Assembly: GCA_016782425.1 (NCBI GenBank)
Contig: JADHYN010000004.1
Span: 9,632-73,631 of the forward strand
DNA: 64,000 nucleotides
Source: Candidatus Omnitrophota bacterium
GTDB lineage: Bacteria > Omnitrophota > Gorgyraeia > JABMRN01 > RBG-13-46-9
Direction: 5' to 3'
Part shown: positions 2,651 to 61,568 of the stretch, piece by piece
Layout of the letters: every line of letters begins with the position of its first letter
How positions within the stretch are numbered: the first letter of the stretch is position 1
Program-made: the position numbers and the translations under genes
The notes under the pieces: model-generated
The model's database searches: none
Told to the model about the DNA's origin: nothing
The model's input: the letters and a program-made list of their open reading frames with translations, nothing else

Positions 2651-2861
2651 ATTACTATCTCAATTGCATCAGCATCTTGCCATCGTAAAGAAATGTTGTC
2701 CGGAGGGCATTTGAATATACGACGAATATTAAGATAATGATAATAAAAACTAATAATGATTTACGAGGCCTTTTTTTCATCCCCGATTTTCAAGAATCAA
2801 CCTTTCTCACACAATTATAAAACCAGGGATTACAGTTGTCAATAACTATCCCGTATACTTT

Positions 2862-3095
2862 TTAACCGCGCACACCGGTAATGATCGTAATAGGTGGGTG
2901 TGGTTTGCCAGAAACGGAACGCTCACCTTGAGCACTTGTGGTTTCTTTATGATTGTTGATTGCGGCTTGCAAGACACTTTCTATGCATTTTTGATAGGCC
3001 TGTTTGGTATAGCTTTCTTCCTCTGCATGGGTAGGACCTACACTTGCGATTATAAATAGTACCAAGCTCGCCAAGCACACTATTTTCACCTTCAT
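2862..3095 (-). CDS. small secreted hypothetical protein
   Basis: The ORF track extends to 3146. An internal ATG at 3095 is preceded by GGGAGG and begins with the signal peptide MKVKIVCLASLVLFIIASVGPTHA. Confidence 0.4.
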   Translation of the reverse strand: MKVKIVCLASLVLFIIASVGPTHAEEESYTKQAYQKCIESVLQAAINNHKETTSAQGERSVSGKPHPPITIITGVRG

Positions 3096-12651: not shown

Positions 12652-14202
12652 CTATTCTTCTTTTTCTCCGAACACCTCGGCTGTGAATATATAAATATCG
12701 CATTCGCCCTTTTTCCAGGCATCGGGTGACATACCTGCCTTGTCACCGCATAGCGAATTCATGAACTGCTCGCGGTTCCAGCCTGCTTCGGTAGCAACCT
12801 GCGGCAGATAAACGCCGCTGGTAAAACCTCTTCTCACGATAACTCCGTGCTTTCCCATTTCTATCACGTCAGGGTTATCGATTTTCTTAAGCGGAGATAG
12901 TGCTGAAATTTCAATGTCTATATCATCCATCTCGTTTAGTGTAACCTGCGGAAATCGCGGATCGCCGGTTGCCGCTTCCACCGCCATATCACGCACTGTC
13001 AGATAAAATGGGCCACGGCCTACGATGTTTCCGATGCAGCCTCGTAGCTGGCCGTGCTTGTGGAGCGTCACAAATCCGCCCATCTCAGCCAATAAGACAG
13101 GATCCGTTTCTTCAACCGGCAGGCGTTTTCTGTTTTTCAGGTAATGCATGATCGAATCCCGTGCCAGTTTCAGCATCTTTTTTCTTTGTACTTCGTTCAA
13201 CATATCATTATCTCCTTTTTCTGACTTTGGCATTTGGCGTTTCGGGCCTAGTTTTGATTTTTTCCGCCCGAGGCGGATCCGCCTTTGGCGGAGATTTTTT
13301 CCGCCCGAGGCGGAGATATTTGATTTAATTATGGCGGCACTTAAATACCCCACTACCCTCCTTTTATCCCAGGTAGTATCTCCTGAATTGGCGTACTTGA
13401 GGATTTCTATCTTGTCGGCTCCGAGTTTTTTGGTCGCGATCATGGTCGCGTACACTGCTCCGTAACCGCACATTAACTGGTGACCTGAAAGCGAACTTTC
13501 GGTGTATAATTTATCGGCATCAAATTCTTCTATTACGGAAATCGTTTTTCTATCCATGCTGTTCGCTTTCTTATACGGCAGGTAGTGCGACATGTCTGTG
13601 CTCGCAACAAGCAAAAAACTTTCTTTGTCTTTTAAGGTGTCGTATAAAGCTTTGCCCAGTATTTTGCAATTCTCCAAATTCTGATCGCCGATTGCGACGA
13701 GAACAATCTTGAAATCGTTTAAAACCGCCTGCAGAAACGGTATTTCCATTTCGATGGAATTTTCTCCCAGAAAAGCGAGGGGTTTGTCATAAATCTTCGG
13801 ATGCGCGGCGATCAGTTGTTCTGTGATTTTTTTATCGATTTCAACAACGCCAAGCGGCGTTTCAATGCCGTCTACATCAAGAACCGCTATGCCGTCATAA
13901 TTCCTTGTGTGGCTGAAGCCTACTACGACAACGGTCTTTATAGTTTGTTTACTGATAGCTTTAAAGCCATAGGCTGCAACGGGTCCCGAATAAACAAAAC
14001 CGGCATGCGGGGATATTATCGCGACAATTTCGCCGTCGATTGAGGGGGGTGTAGCTTTGGTAAGATATGATTGCAGTTCGGCGGTCAAACTTCTTTTTGA
14101 AGCAGAGTACCACCTTCCTGCCAGATCCGCCTTCTTCACTTCGCCCATCGCCGTTCCAGCAAGGAGTGTTGAGGTGATAAGACCGATTAAGATTTTTTTC
14201 AT
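12652..14202 (-). CDS. Memo-like (AmmeMemoRadiSam system protein B) fused in frame to AMMECR1 (protein A), with N-terminal signal peptide
   Basis: Residues after the signal peptide (AGRWYSASKRSL.., SPHAGFVYSG, STDMSHY) are Memo-like. The C-terminal 183 aa (MLKLARDSI..GCIG..GDPRFP..GVYLPQV) are AMMECR1. The track ORF start at 14271 reads through the tRNA, so the real start is taken as ATG 14202. An internal SD plus ATG sits at 13203. Confidence 0.8.
   Translation of the reverse strand: MKKILIGLITSTLLAGTAMGEVKKADLAGRWYSASKRSLTAELQSYLTKATPPSIDGEIVAIISPHAGFVYSGPVAAYGFKAISKQTIKTVVVVGFSHTRNYDGIAVLDVDGIETPLGVVEIDKKITEQLIAAHPKIYDKPLAFLGENSIEMEIPFLQAVLNDFKIVLVAIGDQNLENCKILGKALYDTLKDKESFLLVASTDMSHYLPYKKANSMDRKTISVIEEFDADKLYTESSLSGHQLMCGYGAVYATMIATKKLGADKIEILKYANSGDTTWDKRRVVGYLSAAIIKSNISASGGKNLRQRRIRLGRKKSKLGPKRQMPKSEKGDNDMLNEVQRKKMLKLARDSIMHYLKNRKRLPVEETDPVLLAEMGGFVTLHKHGQLRGCIGNIVGRGPFYLTVRDMAVEAATGDPRFPQVTLNEMDDIDIEISALSPLKKIDNPDVIEMGKHGVIVRRGFTSGVYLPQVATEAGWNREQFMNSLCGDKAGMSPDAWKKGECDIYIFTAEVFGEKEE
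13252..13327. repeat. GC-rich double/triple palindrome element (CCGCC-CGA-GGCGG / CCGCC-TTT-GGCGG / CCGCC-CGA-GGCGG), copy 1
   Basis: ttttgattttttCCGCCcgaGGCGGatCCGCCtttGGCGGagattttttCCGCCcgaGGCGGagatatttgattt. The 40-nt core recurs at 58484-58528. It lies in frame in the Memo-AMMECR1 linker. Confidence 0.85.
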
Positions 14203-17997: not shown

Positions 17998-18043
17998 AGT
18001 TTACTTATTGCTACTTACAGCTTATAGCTTACAGCTTATGTAA
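17998..18043 (-). repeat. TAAGNNN heptad array beginning at the stop codon of the upstream gene
   Basis: Minus strand reads TAAGCTG TAAGCTA TAAGCTG TAAGTAG CAA TAAGTAA ACT, followed by GTG (HDAC start). Confidence 0.8.
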
Positions 18044-20533: not shown

Positions 20534-20827
20534 TTTTTCCTCCTTCAATGAGACCCACACTTATGAAAATCGAAGATTTTCGTAAGTGTGTCTTCCGTGA
20601 ATTTCTTCTGTGAATCCTGTTAGAAATATCTCATTTCTAACAGGGTGAAGGGTCGAATTGGACCCCCCCACCACTTTCTAAAATTACAATTTCTTGTTAC
20701 TAAAGGCTTTGTCTCTATTATGATGCACTATCACCACTTTTGTACATAGCATAGAAAGTGGTGGGGGGTAAATTCAGCCATATAACTTACGTCGCTTCGC
20801 TCCGTAAGTTATGGCTTCATTTACCTC
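20534..20827 (-). repeat. three-hairpin intergenic element, copy E1 (central module type B2, plus one extra hairpin)
   Basis: Fills the TPR-stop to exbB-start spacer. Hairpin A 20556-20590, extra hairpin 20616-20644, long hairpin B arms 20652-20680 / 20752-20779, hairpin C 20780-20813. The core is roughly nine-tenths identical (by eye) to 31326-31451. Confidence 0.85.
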
Positions 20828-31242: not shown

Positions 31243-31524
31243 CTTGCCTCCTTCGATGAGCATTGGACTTATGAAAATCTCTGATTTTTATAAGTCCATC
31301 TTCTATGAATTTCTCCTCCGAATGTGCGAATTGAACCCCCCACCACTTTCTAAAATTACAATTTCTTGTCATTAAAGGCTTTGTCTCTACCATAATACAT
31401 TATCACCATTTTTGTACATAGCATAGAAAGTGGTGGGGGGTAAATTCAGCCATACGACTTGCGTCTCTTGTAACCTGGAAATAAAAATTCCTAAACTATA
31501 TATAAACGCAAGTCGTGGCTTCAT
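31243..31524 (-). repeat. three-hairpin intergenic element, copy E2 (central module type B2)
   Basis: Fills the spacer from the MerR-like stop to the smc start. Hairpin A 31264-31298, hairpin B arms 31326-31352 / 31424-31451, hairpin C arms 31451-31463 / 31507-31518. Confidence 0.85.
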
Positions 31525-31740
31525 TTATTTGCCTTTAAGCAGTATTCTCCGTAAAATATCTAGATCCTGAGATGTGTATTCGCGATAGTGGTTTATTGGG
31601 TTCCTGTGGGGTTTTGGAAAAATGCCCTTCGCCTCGTAGTTTTTTATCGTTCCCTTGTAGATGCCCAATATGTTGGCCACCTCTTGAACATTGTATCTCT
31701 TCCTGCCCAATTTGGTTTCTTCATCAACCATCAACATCAC
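31525..31740 (-). CDS. small MerR-type HTH DNA-binding protein (no effector domain)
   Basis: YNVQEVANILGIYKGTIKNYEAKGIFPKPHRNPINHYREYTSQDL matches the MerR N-terminal HTH pattern. Confidence 0.6.
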   Translation of the reverse strand: MMLMVDEETKLGRKRYNVQEVANILGIYKGTIKNYEAKGIFPKPHRNPINHYREYTSQDLDILRRILLKGK

Positions 31741-44504: not shown

Positions 44505-44647
44505 TTATTTCACCTCCTTCCGTCAATTCATTTTCTTAGAACTTCGACTTTGAACAGTCGAATTGAACCCTTGACATCTTTGATGTCAAGGGTAAGTTCA
44601 GCCATATGATTTATGGCAACTTCGGTTGCCATAAATCATGGCTTCAG
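44505..44647 (-). repeat. three-hairpin intergenic element, copy E3 (minimal, central module type B1)
   Basis: Fills the nadX-stop to 81-aa-start spacer. Hairpin B arms 44559-44577 / 44583-44601 (TTGACAT-ctttg-ATGTCAA), hairpin C 44602-44641, short A-like hairpin 44543-44562. Confidence 0.8.
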
Positions 44648-45460
44648 TTACGTTCCTATTTTAACGCCCTCTACGATGCCCTTCAGTGTTGCGATGGCAG
44701 AAAGGGCTGCTAGTTTGCTTGTTTTCGGATTTTTCTCAAACGGGACATTTTCGGTTCTCGTCGTAATCCTGCCGAAATCGCCGACTATTTCTATCTCATG
44801 CGTGTTTTTTGTGAATTTAGGGGAGGTGACGATCTCTACCGTTGTATTTTTCGCCCCTATGCCTGCAAGGGATAAAAGCGATGCAACGTTTACATTCTTG
44901 GGAAAGCCCTTCACTGCTTCGAGGGCATTTCCTTTAAATATAACCTTCTCGTCTCTTATGGAATTTATGTCTATGTTTTTCTCCTCGAGATAAGGCGCGC
45001 CTTCAAGGCCTTTAGGCGGTTTTTTTGTAGTTAGCGTAACTTTGTCTATTTTGGAAATTTTTGCGCTTTTTAGGGCATCTATCCCGCATATAGCACCACT
45101 CGGGAAATACACCTTGATGTTTTTGATTCTTGCTTCTTCCAGGAGGTTTTCGGATTCGATCAGCCCTCCGACGCTCATCACCATGATGTCTTTTGACTTT
45201 TCGACGGCTTTTTTCACCACTTCCCGAGAAATACGGCTACTTGCGGCTTCTATTATTAATTCGGATTTGCCAAAAAGGGCTTCTTCCGAATCAGTTGCAA
45301 CATCCTTTTTCACGAGGCGCGATAGGCTCTCGCTCTTCTCTTTATCTATATCGTATAGCGCTACAAGTTCTATATTGTTTTTTAAAAGCGTTGCGCAGGC
45401 AGAGGCTATCTCACTGCCTATCGCGCCGCAACCTATAATGCCAACTTTTAGCTTCTTCAT
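44648..45460 (-). CDS. nadX: L-aspartate dehydrogenase
   Basis: KVGIIGCGAIGSEIA Rossmann N-terminus. The C-terminal NPKTSKLAALSAIATL is typical of the Asp-DH family. Adjacent to nadA. Confidence 0.7.
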   Translation of the reverse strand: MKKLKVGIIGCGAIGSEIASACATLLKNNIELVALYDIDKEKSESLSRLVKKDVATDSEEALFGKSELIIEAASSRISREVVKKAVEKSKDIMVMSVGGLIESENLLEEARIKNIKVYFPSGAICGIDALKSAKISKIDKVTLTTKKPPKGLEGAPYLEEKNIDINSIRDEKVIFKGNALEAVKGFPKNVNVASLLSLAGIGAKNTTVEIVTSPKFTKNTHEIEIVGDFGRITTRTENVPFEKNPKTSKLAALSAIATLKGIVEGVKIGT

Positions 45461-50479: not shown

Positions 50480-50890
50480 AATTTATCCCCCCTTCAATGA
50501 GCACGCAACTTATGGAACGAAATGAACATAAGTTGCTGTGCGAATTGAATCCTTGACATTTTGTTCCGAAACAGAATTTATTATTTTTTCAATAGTCTTC
50601 TTTCTTGTATTTCCATTTTTAAATTGTCTTTCCCGCATAAAAGCCTGTGCCCGCGAATTGAACTTTTCATAATAGATTAATTCGATAGGTCGTCTATGCT
50701 TCGTATACTTAACATGTCCACTTGAATGTTCGGCGAACCGTTCTTTTAAGCGATACGTATGGCCGTAATACTTTGTGCCATCGTTACATTTCAAGATATA
50801 AAAATAATAAGTTGTTTTCATAAGCAAAATGTCAAGGATCAAATTTGCGCTTATGATTTATGTCGCATAAATGCGGCTTAAATCATGCGC
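50480..50890 (-). mobile_element. three-hairpin intergenic element, copy E4, carrying a GIY-YIG ORF inside central hairpin B1 (candidate autonomous copy)
   Basis: Hairpin A 50502-50540, hairpin B arms 50541-50559 / 50829-50849 enclosing the ORF, hairpin C 50847-50890 (overlaps the last codons of dapF). 50491-50559 differs from 60834-60902 at 2 of 69 positions. Confidence 0.7.
50510..50821 (-). CDS. small stand-alone GIY-YIG nuclease-domain protein (YhbQ/UPF0213-like)
   Basis: MKTTYYFYILKCNDGTKYYGHTYRLKERFAEHSSG..ELIYYEKFNSRAQAFMRERQFKN carries the GIY/YIG, Arg and Glu/Asn motifs. Start set at ATG 50821; the track begins at an upstream TTG. Confidence 0.8.
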   Translation of the reverse strand: MKTTYYFYILKCNDGTKYYGHTYRLKERFAEHSSGHVKYTKHRRPIELIYYEKFNSRAQAFMRERQFKNGNTRKKTIEKIINSVSEQNVKDSIRTATYVHFVP

Positions 50891-51701
50891 TCATTTGACC
50901 TTCGAAAACGATGTGGGCTTTGCCTTCGAAATAAACATCGTGAAAGTGATTGCGTTCTTTCTTGAAGTAAACATTCAAAATTTCCTTGCTTTTTGTAACA
51001 ACCTTGACGGGCTCTCTTGTGCCGTTTACCAGGTGCGAAATAATGGCCGATGCGACCACGCCCGTGCCGCAGGCTAACGTCTCGTCTTCGACGCCCCTTT
51101 CATAGGTCCTTACCAGAATCGTCGAATTGTCGTTGGAAGGTTCCACGAAATCGGCATTTGTGCCTTCCGGTTCGAACAGCTTATGATATCTTATTTTCGA
51201 ACCCATTTTCTTTACGGGATAATTTTCGATGTCCTTGACAAAGTGTACGGCGTGTGGAACTCCTGTATCGAGTGTATGGACGTTCATAATTGTTTTTCCG
51301 GCTCCGATATTCTGGTCGAGCTTGACATTTTGTGGAGGCGTCATCTTTATCCTTATCAAACCTTTTTTTACTTCTGCTTCCAATGTGCCGGCTTTTGTTT
51401 CTATTTTCATCGAAGCCTTGCACCACTTTTTCTCGTATGCGTAAAGGGCGCTACACCTGATGCCGTTTCCGCACATGGTTACCTCCGAACCGTCGGGATT
51501 AAAAATCCTCATCTTGAAATCGGCGGATTCCGAGTTTTCCAGAACAAGAAACCCGTCGGCACCGATAGAATATTTCCTTCTGCAGGAACGCCTCGCAAAA
51601 TCCGAAAAGTCGCCTATTTTGCTAGCGAGTTTCTTTTCCCTGTTGTCAAGAATCAGAAAATCGTTTCCGCTTGCTACAGTCTTTACGAAATCTACATTCA
51701 T
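50883..51701 (-). CDS. dapF: diaminopimelate epimerase
   Basis: ASGNDFLILD, the two catalytic Cys regions (MCGNGIRC, LACGTG). Confidence 0.9.
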   Translation of the reverse strand: MNVDFVKTVASGNDFLILDNREKKLASKIGDFSDFARRSCRRKYSIGADGFLVLENSESADFKMRIFNPDGSEVTMCGNGIRCSALYAYEKKWCKASMKIETKAGTLEAEVKKGLIRIKMTPPQNVKLDQNIGAGKTIMNVHTLDTGVPHAVHFVKDIENYPVKKMGSKIRYHKLFEPEGTNADFVEPSNDNSTILVRTYERGVEDETLACGTGVVASAIISHLVNGTREPVKVVTKSKEILNVYFKKERNHFHDVYFEGKAHIVFEGQMSA

Positions 51702-52947: not shown

Positions 52948-54273
52948 TTACCTTTTTATCGAAATCCTCGATTTTACGGACACAAGCGGGTCGAGAAGTC
53001 TGGCTATTTCACTGTGTTTGAACTTATTTGAAAATTTCGCCAGTTCCGTGTCTTTCATGCCTTTTATTTTCCTACCTTTATCGAGTGAAAACTTTACAAG
53101 TTTCCCAATGATATCGTGCGCTCTCTTAAACGGGACTCCTTTTTTAATAAGATAATAAACGAGATCCGTTGCGTACAGCGCCTCATCCTCTTCTATTCTT
53201 TTTTTGATAACGCGCCTGTTCCACGCCAGCCTTTCTACGAGCTTCGCCAGAATCTGCAATTCTTGCGCAATTATCTCAAAGGAACTAAAAAGCGGAGGCT
53301 TGTCAAGCTGCATATCCCTGTTGTAACCGAGGGAGAGCCCTTTCATCATCGTCAAGACGCTTATCAAGTTACCGTTTAATGTCCCCGTGTAGCCCCTTAT
53401 AAGCTCCAGCACGTCCGGATTCTTCTTCTGCGGCATAAGGGAACTTCCGGTCGCAAAAGCATCGTCTAGTTCGACAAAGTTAAATTCCTTCGTCGACCAT
53501 ATAATGAGATCCTCGGCCAATCTCGAAAGATGCATCCCGAGAATCGATAGCATCGATAATATCTCAATGACAAAATCCCTGTCGCTAACCGTATCTATCG
53601 GATTTGTCGTCGGTTCTATTTTTATGCCCTTTGCCTCTTTTTTGTAAAGCTTTGCGTCGATTGGGGTTCCTGCCAGCGCTCCCGCGCCCAGCGTCAACTT
53701 CATACTGTTTTTTATATTCTCTAATCTCTTATTATCCCTTTCCAGCATCTCGATGAAACTACCAAGATAATCCGAAAGATACACAAGCTGCGCGTGCTGC
53801 AGGTGCGTGTAGCCGGGAATTATAATTCCCTTTGCCTTTTTGCATACAGTCTTTAAGGATTCCATAAGCGCAAGGGAGAGCCCCTGTATGTTATTCAACT
53901 CGGCGGCGCAGAAAAGTTTCAAATCGAAAAGTACCTGGTCGTTTCTTGATCGTGCCGTATGCAGTTTTAGCGCAAGACTTCCGAGTTCTTTTTCTATGGC
54001 ATTTTGAATATTCGTGTGGATATCCTCTGCCTTCCTGTCGATTGCGAATTTTTTCTTTTCGATCCGGTTGTATATCTTTTTAAGGGCGCTTCCGAGTTTT
54101 TCCGCTTCCTTGTTAGTAATGAGCGAACTCTTTTTCAATATCAAAACGTGCATTATGGATCCCAGGACATCGTATTTAGCAAGCTTATAATCGTAATCTA
54201 TGGATTTTGTAAATTCTTCGACAAGCGGATCTGTCTTTTTTTTAAATCTTCCGCCCCACATCTTCTTAGTCAT
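52948..54273 (-). CDS. argH: argininosuccinate lyase
   Basis: MWGGRFKK N-terminus and the GSSLMPQKKNPD signature. Confidence 0.95.
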   Translation of the reverse strand: MTKKMWGGRFKKKTDPLVEEFTKSIDYDYKLAKYDVLGSIMHVLILKKSSLITNKEAEKLGSALKKIYNRIEKKKFAIDRKAEDIHTNIQNAIEKELGSLALKLHTARSRNDQVLFDLKLFCAAELNNIQGLSLALMESLKTVCKKAKGIIIPGYTHLQHAQLVYLSDYLGSFIEMLERDNKRLENIKNSMKLTLGAGALAGTPIDAKLYKKEAKGIKIEPTTNPIDTVSDRDFVIEILSMLSILGMHLSRLAEDLIIWSTKEFNFVELDDAFATGSSLMPQKKNPDVLELIRGYTGTLNGNLISVLTMMKGLSLGYNRDMQLDKPPLFSSFEIIAQELQILAKLVERLAWNRRVIKKRIEEDEALYATDLVYYLIKKGVPFKRAHDIIGKLVKFSLDKGRKIKGMKDTELAKFSNKFKHSEIARLLDPLVSVKSRISIKR

Positions 54274-54310
54274 TTCTTCCTCCTGCTTATAGCTTATGGC
54301 TTAAAGCTTA
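54274..54310 (-). repeat. TAAGCNN heptad array beginning at the argG stop codon
   Basis: Minus strand reads TAAGCTT TAAGCCA TAAGCTA TAAGCAG GAGGAAGAA ATG(argH). Confidence 0.85.
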
Positions 54311-58479: not shown

Positions 58480-58483
58480 TGTT

Positions 58484-58528
58484 TTTTCCGCCCGAGGCGG
58501 ATCCGCCTTTGGCGGAGATTTTTGATTT
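58484..58528. repeat. GC-rich double palindrome element, copy 2
   Basis: ttttttCCGCCcgaGGCGGatCCGCCtttGGCGGagatttttgattt. The core is identical to 13262-13301. Confidence 0.85.
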
Positions 58529-59807: not shown

Positions 59808-60824
59808 CTACAACAACCCTTCCGTTTCTTCTAACCCGTACATTATGTTCATGTTTTGTACAGCCTGGCCTGCTGCGCCCTTTAATAGATTATCTATACA
59901 GCTTACTACAACTACTTTGTTACCGGTTACTTTAGTCCCGATGTTGCAGAAATTTGTGTATCTTACATCTTTTATTTCCGGAAGCGTGCCTTCATCCATA
60001 ACTCTTACAAACGGCTTGTCCTTGTAAAAATTTTTGTAAACCTGTGTAATCTCTACTATATTAAATTCCTCATTCAAATCCATATAAACCGTTGAAAGAA
60101 TTCCTCTGTTCATGGGAATAAGGTGCGGCACAAATAGAACGTCGACGCCTTTTCTACCGGAAAGCTTGCCTAGCACCATGTTGATCTCGGGCTTATGCTG
60201 ATGCTCGTTGATTTTATATGCTTTAAGATTTTCGTTTACCTCCGCGTGCGAGAGCGCAATGGTCGCTTTTCTGCCGGCGCCCGTAGTGCCGCTTTTTGAA
60301 TCTATGATGATTGTATTTAAATTCACCGCACCTTTTTTAACCAAAGGCATCGTAGCAAGTAGCGCACTCGTCGGGTAACAGCCGGGATTTGCGATTAATT
60401 TGGCACCTTTTATTTTATTCCCGTAAAGCTCTGGCATACCGTATACAGCCTTTCTGATGTTCGCAATGTCTTTATGTTTTATGCCATACCATCTTTCGTA
60501 TTCACCGACTTCCAGTCTATAATCGGCGCTTAAATCGATAACCTTTTTTCCCGCTTCAACGAGCTTCGGCGCTACCGTCATGGAAACCGTATGCGGAAGT
60601 GCAAGAAAAAAGAGATCCGCCTTCTTTATCGCATCCTTAAGACTAGGTTTCTTGCAGACAAGATCAATTTTTTCCGCAAGTGACGGAAAAATATCCGATA
60701 TCGGCAATTCTTCTTCCACTATTGCCTGCAAAACGGCTATTTTAACGTCTTTATGTCCTGCCAGGATTTTTACAAGTTCTTCGCCAGTGTATCCGGTCGC
60801 TCCGATTATACCTACCTTTATCAC
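59808..60824 (-). CDS. argC: N-acetyl-gamma-glutamyl-phosphate reductase
   Basis: KVGIIGATGYTGEEL and the active-site GCYPTS. GTG start behind GGGAGG. Confidence 0.95.
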   Translation of the reverse strand: MIKVGIIGATGYTGEELVKILAGHKDVKIAVLQAIVEEELPISDIFPSLAEKIDLVCKKPSLKDAIKKADLFFLALPHTVSMTVAPKLVEAGKKVIDLSADYRLEVGEYERWYGIKHKDIANIRKAVYGMPELYGNKIKGAKLIANPGCYPTSALLATMPLVKKGAVNLNTIIIDSKSGTTGAGRKATIALSHAEVNENLKAYKINEHQHKPEINMVLGKLSGRKGVDVLFVPHLIPMNRGILSTVYMDLNEEFNIVEITQVYKNFYKDKPFVRVMDEGTLPEIKDVRYTNFCNIGTKVTGNKVVVVSCIDNLLKGAAGQAVQNMNIMYGLEETEGLL

Positions 60825-60991
60825 ATCTTCCTCCCTTCAATGAGCACGCAACTTATGGAACGAAGTGAACATAAGTTGCTGTGCGAATTGAACCCTTGAC
60901 ATTTTCGGAAATCTTCATATGGGAAATGTCAAGGGTATAATTCGACCACATAGTTTACGTCTGCCACCGGGCAGTCGTAAACTATGGCCTC
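60825..60991 (-). repeat. three-hairpin intergenic element, copy E5 (ORF-deleted derivative of E4; 5' leader of the arg operon)
   Basis: Hairpin A 60845-60883, hairpin B arms 60884-60902 / 60927-60945, hairpin C 60949-60986. It retains ATG AAG plus the last 19 codons of the GIY-YIG ORF in frame. Confidence 0.85.
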
Positions 60992-61020
60992 AGTATAGAC
61001 AAAAAAACCCACCCTGTCAA
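60992..61020 (-). promoter_or_regulatory. sigma70-type promoter of the arg operon, abutting element E5
   Basis: Minus strand reads TTGACA-17 nt (GGGTGGGTTTTTTTGTC)-TATACT. Confidence 0.55.
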
Positions 61021-61097: not shown

Positions 61098-61532
61098 TTA
61101 GCGCTTGGAGTATTGAAATCTTTTTCTTGCGCGTTTTCTTCCGTATTTCTTCCTCTCTTTGGCCCTGGGGTCTCTGGTGAGGAACCCCGCTTTCTTTATT
61201 GCCGATTTCTGGTTCTCATCGAACTTGACAATTGCCCTTGAAATTCCGTGTTTAAGAGCCTGCGCCTGTCCGCTGATGCCGCCCCCGTTTAGAGTAGCGG
61301 CAATATCAAGCTTATTTTCGAGCTTCACCGTCTTGATCGGCTGGTTTATGATTAGCCTGTGAGATTCCCGCGGAAAATAATCCTCGAGCGAGCGTTTATT
61401 TACGCGGATCTTACCTGATCCCTCGCGTAAAAAAACGCGAGCTATAGACTTTTTCCGACGACCGACCGTCAGGATAAAATCTGCCTTGGTTTGCGTTTTC
61501 GTCTTTTGCTCTCTTTTCTGTTCGGCTACCAT
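61098..61532 (-). CDS. rpsI: 30S ribosomal protein S9
   Basis: The C-terminus GFLTRDPRAKERKKYGRKRARKRFQYSKR is diagnostic. Confidence 0.95.
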   Translation of the reverse strand: MVAEQKREQKTKTQTKADFILTVGRRKKSIARVFLREGSGKIRVNKRSLEDYFPRESHRLIINQPIKTVKLENKLDIAATLNGGGISGQAQALKHGISRAIVKFDENQKSAIKKAGFLTRDPRAKERKKYGRKRARKRFQYSKR

Positions 61533-61568
61533 TATTCTTCTTCCTTATAACTTAAGGCTTACGGCTTA
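61533..61568 (-). repeat. TAAGNNN heptad array beginning at the rplM stop codon
   Basis: Minus strand reads TAAGCCG TAAGCCT TAAGTTA TAAGGAA GAAGAATA ATG(rpsI). Confidence 0.85.

Follow-up and report, generated by a model that had tools for sequence, protein, structure and literature searches.

The 64,000-nucleotide (nt) stretch of Candidatus Omnitrophota bacterium DNA analysed here (contig JADHYN010000004.1, positions 9,632 to 73,631; hereafter the window) carries a 406-nt insertion at its dapF-dapA junction, in which a small GIY-YIG nuclease gene lies between two inverted hairpin arms. This insertion is probably (about 0.6) an autonomous member of a family of compact mobile elements that is spread across Omnitrophota, whose unit is arm-open reading frame (ORF)-arm and whose sole protein is a GIY-YIG domain of about 90 amino acids (aa). 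A first-pass annotation of the window had proposed that ORF-bearing and ORF-less copies stand to each other as autonomous elements and MITEs (miniature inverted-repeat transposable elements). Empty sites, about 20 unrelated junctions, paralogues, ORF-less derivatives and a stand-alone GIY-YIG protein bear this out.

Read on the minus strand, the insertion (window 50493-50898) runs from a 70-nt arm through a 103-codon GIY-YIG ORF to a 67-nt inverted arm. Its parts, in window coordinates, are as follows.

50493..50898, minus strand: the whole element, bounded by the two covariance-model arm matches and missing from the junctions in loci L037, L038, and L039.
50829..50898, read on the plus strand: left (dapF-proximal) arm, made of ATGTCAAGGA, the outer helix, hairpin C, and CTCATTTGA.
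50890-50847, minus strand: hairpin C, GCGC-ATGATTTA...TAAATCAT-AA-GCGC.
50885-50883, minus strand: dapF stop codon TGA, inside the 5' arm of hairpin C.
50846-50824, minus strand: left inner inverted repeat AAATTTGATCCTTGACATTTTGC, ending 2 nt ahead of the ORF start codon and aligned with 25 other loci.
ATG 50821 to TAA 50512-50510, minus strand: GIY-YIG ORF, 103 codons plus TAA.
50564-50541, minus strand: right inner inverted repeat ACAAAATGTCAAGGATTCAATTCG, which doubles as coding sequence of the ORF C-terminus.
50493..50559, minus strand: right (dapA-proximal) arm, made of ATGTCAAGGA, the outer helix TTCAAT/ATTGAA, hairpin A, and CTCATTGAA.
50540-50502, minus strand: hairpin A.
50501-50487, minus strand: CTCATTGAA-GGGGGG.
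50480..50492, minus strand: GGGGGGATAAATT, the native dapA ribosome-binding region, kept directly 3' of the element.
50479, minus strand: dapA start codon ATG.

The covariance model scores the left arm at 70.2 bits (E=1e-14) and the right arm at 80.8 bits (E=3e-17). Beyond the inner repeats, hairpin C is an inverted copy of hairpin A. Both arms have an asymmetric loop (GGAACGAAGTGAAC on the left and GTTCACTTCGTTCC on the right), and their outer ends are TCAAATGAG and CTCATTnAA. GC content is 34.7% for the element and 33.7% for its ORF, lower than in the flanking genes (about 45%). The left arm encodes the dapF stop and the four residues, QMSA, with which dapF ends. At the other end, the last 17 codons of the nuclease ORF pass through the right repeat into hairpin A. 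The ORFs of L001 and L005, which use the K(T/M)SR frame, end at a TAA inside GGGTTTAATTC; in the window this sequence is mutated to TTCAATTC, with loss of that TAA. The window ORF, whose NVK frame has no stop inside the right repeat, runs on, and this read-through into hairpin A is a local accident. TTTGCTT (50822-50828) precedes the ATG in place of a Shine-Dalgarno sequence, whereas strong AAGGAGG sites precede the neighbouring genes; the nuclease may thus be translated weakly or in an unconventional way.

This anatomy agrees with the minus-strand order of the dapF-dapA spacer as first described, including the inverted repeats that bracket the ORF and the ORF 3' end that reaches into hairpin A. 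However, the ATG lies 7 nt after TTGACAT and not 11, and TTTAAGCCGCAT, which had been placed before hairpin C, is the loop of that hairpin. In place of the earlier picture of three hairpins, the element is better described as two inverted arms of about 70 nt, and "hairpin B" corresponds to the facing inner repeats.

Comparison of occupied and empty dapF-dapA junctions, which the first-pass annotation had called for, yielded three empty sites. In L037, L038, and L039, dapF and dapA overlap by 8 nt and the spacer is zero. The empty junction in L037 reads TTTTTGAAGGAGGGATAAATTATG (TTTTTGAAGGAGGGATAAATTATGTTTAA), and those of L038 and L039 are near-identical. The occupied window junction reads TTTTCGAAGG + (406 nt) + GGGGGGATAAATTATG or, with the ends of the insertion written out, TTTTCGAAGG + (TCAAATGAG ... 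CTCATTGAA) + GGGGGGATAAATTATGTTTAA. Ahead of the dapA start codon, empty sites have GAAGG-AGGGATAAATT-ATG and the occupied site has ...CTCATTGAA-GGGGGGATAAATT-ATG. The dapF homologues (71-77% identity) end in ...FEGGINYV, and the window dapF ends in ...FEGQMSA. The element therefore entered the dapA Shine-Dalgarno region, within the last dapF codons. As a result, the dapF tail was replaced, the dapF stop is supplied by the element, and the ribosome-binding site was left in place. A second site in the window, downstream of aspDH and holding the ORF-less copy 44527-44651, corresponds to an empty 21-nt spacer in L039, within 20 kb of syntenic sequence (CP070780.1). In the same stretch, the argC-leader site, which holds another window copy, carries a different, unrelated long palindrome. 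Across 28 kb of sequence from the relatives, the covariance model detects no arm.

Insertion is also recorded within genomes. Same-genome paralogues are 88% (L012/L014) and 91% (L024/L026) identical, with flanks at random-level identity. Other copies show decay: a further palindromic insert interrupts L029, L030 has an internal deletion, and L023 a frameshift. The window copy, which lacks the stop used in L001 and L005, also counts in this series. These comparisons show that a discrete arm-ORF-arm unit inserts at new sites.

The same unit recurs across the phylum. For the window protein (P0001), 33 homologues were found at 53-67% identity, and where a source is named it is Omnitrophica. Loci were fetched from assemblies and from one genome per species, and 26 ORF-bearing loci were examined. 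Homologues at 45-67% identity occupy some 20 distinct operon junctions in genomes of Omnitrophota, with flanking housekeeping genes as varied as dapF|dapA, ispH|rpsA, recO|apbA, and ATP-pyrophosphatase|thiI-like; further sites lie inside a NiFe-hydrogenase operon and upstream of rpmF. Inverted repeats of 24-26 bp (GAATTnnACCCTTGACATTTTGC // GCAAAATGTCAAGGGTTnAATTCG) bracket the ORF in 25/26 loci, and the covariance model places an arm on each side of it in 23/26. Between the repeats, the core measures 271-285 bp in 23 loci; two deleted copies have cores of 244 and 109 bp, and in L029 a nested insert has pushed the right repeat to a distance of about 470 nt from its left partner. Because the same inverted repeats flank the ORF at near-constant spacing across loci, chance is excluded.

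Three features show that conservation of the repeats acts on their DNA sequence. Most homologues read the right repeat as KCQGFNS, two read it as K(T/M)SR(V/I)*, and another three as NVK(D/G); different homologues thus make use of all three of its frames. The point at which the ORF stops varies with this frame, inside GGGTTTAATTC in L001 and L005 and within hairpin A in the window copy. In addition, the left and right repeats of one element co-vary, with GACG/GACG in L001 and TTTTTC/TTTTTC in L012, L023, L024, and L026. The ORF and its arms diversify together, and loss of the ORF gives arm pairs that persist and recur.

Most elements are co-oriented with the genes around them: 22/24 upstream and 21/23 downstream neighbours share their strand. 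Across the 26 elements, the left terminus nearly always has TAA and/or TGA in two frames, and the right flank starts with GGAG in 14/26. In the genomes compared, the element is practically confined to junctions of a stop codon with the following Shine-Dalgarno sequence and lies in the orientation of transcription.

The arms were modelled from an alignment of 31 distinct sequences. Each arm consists of the conserved ATGTCAAGGG followed by an extended hairpin of about 57 nt and 20 pairs, in which the linker TTnAAT pairs with the outer ATTn'AA. Pairing is present in 96.2% of cells, against 23-40% in slid controls. Compensatory changes occur in 13 pairs, with 108 double-sided against 3 one-sided changes, and the covariation score was matched by 0/500 shuffles. 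The near-absence of G-U intermediates argues for complementarity on both strands, and hence for a hairpin or cruciform constraint at the level of DNA. It points to selection on DNA, not RNA. Three other identities for these hairpins were considered and rejected. Rfam searches at gathering thresholds and at E<=1 returned tRNA elsewhere and sub-threshold matches to miRNA-like hairpins. Hairpins C and A gave no terminator-like call and have no T-tract. For TTGACA and the hairpins as promoters, the window holds 31 promoter-like sites, with 27.6 expected. At one orthologous site (L013, L016, and L029, about 2780-3020), three unrelated hairpins occupy the hairpin-A slot on the same GCGCAAT...ATGCGC base, and the hairpin tips therefore seem to have been exchanged or invaded.

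ORF-less copies were sought in the window with a covariance model of one arm (R1), run over the 64 kb with filters off. Arms were found at exactly five places and none elsewhere, the same five that the first-pass annotation had grouped as a family. The window has one GIY-YIG gene, at dapF-dapA; the other four copies are ORF-less.

60836..60997, minus strand: ORF-less copy in the argC leader, with both arms (model scores 83.5 and 57.6 bits).
44527..44651, minus strand: ORF-less copy with the 5-nt centre CCCTTGACAT-CAAAG-ATGTCAAGGG and a degenerate right arm (55.5 and 20.9 bits).
20534..20827, minus strand: scaffold copy with another centre, an inverted-repeat module of about 137 nt (CCCCCCACCACTTTCTA...); left arm 54.5 bits.
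31243..31526, minus strand: second scaffold copy with the alternative module (left arm 35.6 bits).

The centre of copy 60836-60997 keeps ATGAAG and the ORF 3' end, leaving a mini-ORF, MKISENVKGSIRTATYVHFVP*, and this copy is for that reason a deletion derivative. Its deletion form also occurs in L074, L081, and L111. A repeat search (family D2) finds the right-arm region of the dapF-dapA element (50486-50562) to be 96% identical to 60829-60905. The argC promoter TTGACA-17-TATACT is conserved between the window (60992-61020) and L039 (1640-1670); as the copy begins directly after the -10 box, it forms part of the argC 5' leader. In copy 44527-44651, the repeat search matches the inner repeat at 44559-44580, and two inner repeats abut over the 5-nt centre. 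A bare 25-nt palindrome without arms, CCCTTGACATCTTTGATGTCAAGGG, lies just past rpsA in L004 (5869-5893) and is the reverse complement of the centre of this copy (44569-44592).

The two remaining copies fold with z=-11 (20534-20827; repeat families D1 and D3) and z=-8.6 (31243-31526; family D1). Their alternative module is 91% identical between 20661-20797 and 31333-31469 and consists of about 80 nt enclosed by a 17-bp inverted repeat, CCCCCCACCACTTTCTA/TAGAAAGTGGTGGGGGG. The module is carried by 0/165 fetched loci and has no Rfam match. Its G/C-clamped relatives take the place of hairpin A in L016 and L026, and in L029 they break up the ORF.

Gene-less copies also occur in metagenomes. The pattern CCTTGACAT-N(3-33)-ATGTCAAGG occurs in at least 120 metagenome stretches; it is not fully specific, with many high-GC matches that lack the scaffold, and counts therefore rest on the covariance model. 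The model finds 79 arms in 447 kb of stored metagenome loci, with complete arm-palindrome-arm units in at least 23 loci. Certain centres recur across genomes, namely 5-nt centres (CAAAG, CTTCG) and a 12-nt centre at the T-run/A-run junction of two repeats; they are the commonest among 25 classified copies (n=7 and n=3, respectively). A 24-nt centre, TATGAAAATCTCAGAAAA, represents the same MK..ISE deletion as window copy 60836-60997. The ORF-less derivatives recurrently retain the first two codons and the last 10 or so nt of the ORF. For this organism, copy density is four gene-less copies per 64 kb, a figure that covers the window only.

The protein encoded by the element is a single catalytic domain. 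Pfam GIY-YIG (PF01541) matches residues 5-73 of 103 (E=4.4e-12), with no second domain found, and no NCBIfam model matches the window ORF. The shortest intact homologues have 91-92 aa (P0004 and P0017). Y8, Y18, Y19, G20, R28, H32, E64, and N69 are invariant in 34 sequences, catalytic residues included, and the residues past about 85 are encoded by the right repeat and differ by frame. The profile matches only UPF0213 structures in hmmsearch, 1YWL (EF2693, E=2.8e-13) and 1ZG2 (BH0048, E=7.3e-13). An AlphaFold model (predicted local distance difference test score 78, core >85) has one GIY-YIG domain and a C-terminal helix; in Foldseek, 1YWL and 1ZG2 rank as the top two, followed by the Slx1 nuclease domain (TM score 0.58, root-mean-square deviation 2.1 Å). 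These results confirm the small stand-alone GIY-YIG domain recognised at first reading and its similarity to YhbQ/UPF0213 proteins. The element contains no recognised transposase (DDE, HUH, Ser, Tyr, or Cas1), its sole ORF being the GIY-YIG gene, and no NUMOD, IENR1, helix-turn-helix, or Zn-finger DNA-binding domain is tethered to the catalytic domain.

This clade is a small part of a large assemblage of small GIY-YIG proteins, with 16,905 cluster representatives at E<=1e-3 and five of this clade at E<=1e-30. Distant members have inverted repeats of their own. In L040 (high GC), the order is hairpin, CCCCGGACATGGGCGG, ORF, CCGCCCATGTCCGGGG, hairpin. In L041 (a Sphingomonas plasmid), the gene lies between nrdR and an RNA methyltransferase gene with CTTCGACTTCGCTCAG repeats on its flanks. 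In L165 (Methylobacterium, 560-1060), an inverted repeat of about 40 nt (CTCCTTCGAGGCC...CCTCAGGATGAGG) flanks the gene. A degenerate small GIY-YIG gene is found between rnc and era in L042 (1501-1869, a Sphingomonas paeninsulae plasmid). Together with L165, it suggests that residence at operon junctions and private inverted repeats are general for part of the assemblage. The UPF0213-like genes of Cupriavidus (L163) and Variovorax (L164) have no flanking inverted repeats. A TTCGACTTCGCTCAGGG-type motif is present in hairpin-C loops of L016 (about 2400-2460), L025 (about 2400-2470), and L026 (about 2410-2450), and the same type of motif forms inverted repeats around the small GIY-YIG gene of L041 (1362-1450 and 1783-1806).

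The closest precedent is the Ssn family of single-domain GIY-YIG proteins (about 94 aa; CDD cd10448), which are site-specific single-stranded DNA (ssDNA) nucleases (Chenal et al. 2025, Nat Commun 16:2388, PMC11893778). Their binding site is a hairpin repeat (NTS/SRM) that has a conserved 5' motif, and they cleave the DNA upstream of it (PMC11893778). From this biochemistry, taken by analogy, and from the DNA-level covariation of the hairpins, we infer a mobilising role for the GIY-YIG protein, ssDNA as its substrate, and a route of integration. The nuclease would recognise its own arms (ATGTCAAGGG plus hairpin) on each strand as folded DNA, most likely single-stranded, and nick beside the arm hairpin; host replication or repair would then copy the unit into new sites. 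Arm-only (MITE/REPIN-like) copies may be maintained or moved in trans. Surviving copies would be those that are co-directional in operons and lie exactly 5' of a Shine-Dalgarno GGAG, with the left terminus giving the truncated upstream gene TAA/TGA stops in two frames. Such insertions would be nearly neutral, because the left end brings stops and the right end leaves or restores the ribosome-binding site.

Several observations weigh against a mobile unit driven by its own nuclease. To our knowledge, GIY-YIG nucleases have no recognised strand-transfer chemistry, and cutting alone therefore leaves integration unexplained. A scan of the window finds no Shine-Dalgarno sequence or evident promoter for the GIY-YIG ORF. 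No consistent target-site duplication is seen, with none at all in 19/26 elements, and a duplication of fixed length is unsupported across the 26. At dapF|dapA the duplication amounts to 2-5 nt (GG up to GAAGG); since AAGG is present both in the target and at the end of the element, its exact length is ambiguous. The SRM motif published for Ssn systems does not occur in the window or beside the gene in nine loci. In BLAST searches, the Omnitrophota protein is about equidistant from UPF0213-like proteins without flanking repeats and from repeat-flanked alphaproteobacterial proteins. Lastly, copies with a perfect junction of two terminal inverted repeats (the 5- and 12-nt centres) suit homing into a palindrome equally well.

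Homing of the ORF into intact scaffolds is the main rival. Here, the scaffold would be an independent palindromic MITE, parasitised by a GIY-YIG protein acting as a free-standing homing endonuclease. The enzyme would cut the ORF-less central palindrome (CCCTTGACAT..ATGTCAAGGG), and repair from an ORF-bearing copy, with the 24-26-bp repeats as homology, would place the gene in the centre, so that the site is split and immunised. The exact placement of the ORF between two half-sites fits this account, as do the precise repeat-to-repeat centres (5-nt, 12-nt), which form the commonest ORF-less class and recur across genomes. The arm-less palindrome of L004 (5869-5893), the other module in the central slot of 20534-20827 and 31243-31526, and the nested inserts accepted at hairpin tips elsewhere are also in its favour. 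However, we consider it unlikely. The arms and the ORF co-travel and co-diverge between paralogues. Several ORF-less centres keep the ORF termini, which marks them as deletion derivatives and not virgin targets. A separate DNA-binding domain, on which the known homing enzymes of the GIY-YIG type depend, is not found here. Homing also leaves unexplained the first arrival at the spacer-less dapF/dapA overlap.

Improbable, and less likely than homing, is a passenger model in which the arms are non-autonomous ends moved by a transposase encoded elsewhere (e.g., HUH/RAYT or IS200/IS605), with the GIY-YIG gene carried along as cargo or as an addiction-like hitchhiker. The subterminal hairpins, the lack of a consistent duplication, and the fixed GGAG flank do recall IS200/IS605 and REPIN, and GIY-YIG enzymes are without known strand-transfer activity. 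Yet the gene between the repeats is this GIY-YIG in 26/26 ORF-bearing loci, and no other ORF was ever found between arms. No transposase adjoins any copy seen, the loci and not whole genomes having been screened. The distant GIY-YIG lineages (L040, L041, L165) have their own, different inverted repeats, which argues for nuclease-repeat co-evolution, as in Ssn (PMC11893778). A host function is comparably improbable: the arms would serve as operon punctuation, acting on the processing or stability of mRNA or controlling recombination or DNA uptake, as has been proposed for Neisseria NTS/SsnA, and the nuclease would serve the host, mobility being historical, and although strict co-orientation with transcription, preserved stop and Shine-Dalgarno sequences, purifying selection on catalytic residues, and the Neisseria NTS/SsnA precedent agree with this, presence/absence between close relatives, multiple paralogues, frequent decay and nesting, Watson-Crick-only covariation (which speaks against a role at the RNA level), a terminator/promoter signature not above background, and the lack of an Rfam family all speak against it.

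Two further repeats were observed in the window. Palindrome doublets of the form TCCGCC(n4)GGCGGA occur at 13256-13314, 58480-58523, and 60666-60687, the first two sharing 42 identical nt, and such units are also nested in arm-hairpin loops of L017, L048, and L068. These genomes thus seem to have a second family of small palindromic repeats. At 18001-18038, 54273-54310, and 61531-61568, minus-strand gene starts are directly preceded by a 38-nt (G)CTTA-rich repeat; it shows periodic TAAGC units ahead of the Shine-Dalgarno sequence, e.g., between argH and the next gene.

A broader proposal can be put forward tentatively, with somewhat less than even confidence. Small single-domain GIY-YIG nucleases with hairpin arms may form an unrecognised class of prokaryotic transposable elements that moves as folded ssDNA, targets stop/Shine-Dalgarno junctions within operons, and generates MITE-like arm pairs, with Ssn/NTS, L040, L041, and L165 as branches. 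We know of no prokaryotic insertion-sequence family that depends on a GIY-YIG nuclease. If the proposal is right, this would be the first transposable element with a GIY-YIG nuclease of about 90 aa as its only protein. Landing between a stop and the next Shine-Dalgarno sequence, while bringing stops along, would be a low-cost way to colonise the packed operons of small genomes. The element is also a compact test system for mechanism (406-nt element, 90-aa protein, 70-nt arm), and new arm/nuclease pairs would enlarge the toolbox of sequence-specific ssDNA nucleases.

The element shares single traits with many known systems. Like class II transposons and their MITEs, it has ORF-bearing and ORF-less copies with shared inverted repeats, empty sites, and paralogous insertions. 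Bacterial MITEs (Correia/NEMIS, RPE, ERIC, BOX) are likewise inverted-repeat elements of 125-210 nt in operon spacers, with nested and decayed copies and plausible orientation-dependent effects. However, they are attributed to DDE-type insertion sequences or have no known parent, whereas the parent here bears an ORF and encodes GIY-YIG only. GIY-YIG homing endonucleases (I-TevI, I-BmoI, T4 Seg) share the catalytic domain, selfish spread, presence/absence polymorphism, and a gene that interrupts a sequence intact in gene-less copies. They differ in their length (200-250 aa, with linker and DNA-binding domains, against the catalytic domain alone) and in homing to one allelic site, whereas this element is found at about 20 unrelated sites and has MITE-like derivatives.

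Closer parallels in form come from HUH systems. IS200/IS605 elements are small and have subterminal DNA hairpins, a fixed flanking target, and no target duplication, but their ends are not inverted repeats and their transposase is HUH; the present element has 24-26-bp inner inverted repeats and symmetric arms and no HUH gene. REP/REPIN and RAYT systems combine a nuclease gene in single or few copies between inverted hairpin repeats with gene-less inverted doublets in intergenic transcribed DNA, again without consistent target duplication. However, RAYT is an HUH Y1 enzyme with covalent intermediates, and all 26 loci here encode GIY-YIG; the arms are also longer, with long inner inverted repeats, and insertions lie at stop/Shine-Dalgarno junctions. 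In sequence and fold, the best matches are UPF0213/YhbQ (1YWL EF2693, 1ZG2 BH0048) and Slx1, although the UPF0213-like genes of Cupriavidus (L163) and Variovorax (L164) differ in being without flanking inverted repeats.

The Ssn/repeat units are the nearest parallels in layout. The first-pass annotation knew of no described bacterial element of such organisation, a view overtaken in 2025 by their description (PMC11893778); a literature search on small GIY-YIG proteins with repeats, MITEs, transposases, or Omnitrophota found nothing closer. The ssn genes are usually flanked by repeats, which are also dispersed in hundreds of copies (PMC11893778). The NTS-ssnA-NTS unit has been likened to an insertion sequence and its domestication suggested; a role in transformation was shown, and mobility was not (PMC11893778). 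Whether such nuclease and hairpin-repeat units are mobile or domesticated is an open point of that study (PMC11893778), on which the dapF-dapA locus and its relatives offer genomic evidence in the form of empty and occupied sites, paralogues, co-varying termini, gene-less derivatives, and a decay series. Both systems have a single-domain GIY-YIG protein of about 90-100 aa, a gene flanked on both sides by inverted hairpin-forming repeats, a conserved 5' repeat motif containing GTCA (CGTCAT in NTS, ATGTCAA here), repeats that also occur without the gene (here as four gene-less copies in the 64-kb window), and lineage-specific nuclease/repeat pairs. They differ in the size of the repeat, about 28 nt in Ssn against an arm of about 70 nt with a 20-pair hairpin here. 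Cleavage of ssDNA was shown biochemically for Ssn (PMC11893778); here, insertion is shown by empty sites, paralogues, and deletion derivatives. The SRM consensus, HGTCWYN(0-2)YYVSBRHN(0-5)WNVSBRGN(0-2)RNCYNB, is unmatched, with no occurrence in the 64-kb window, for which shuffled sequences yield 0.15, and none beside the gene in nine loci. By analogy of layout, the element resembles an Ssn/repeat unit and is a candidate member that lacks one defining feature, the SRM. It is a variant of a kind first described in 2025, and not a categorically new one.

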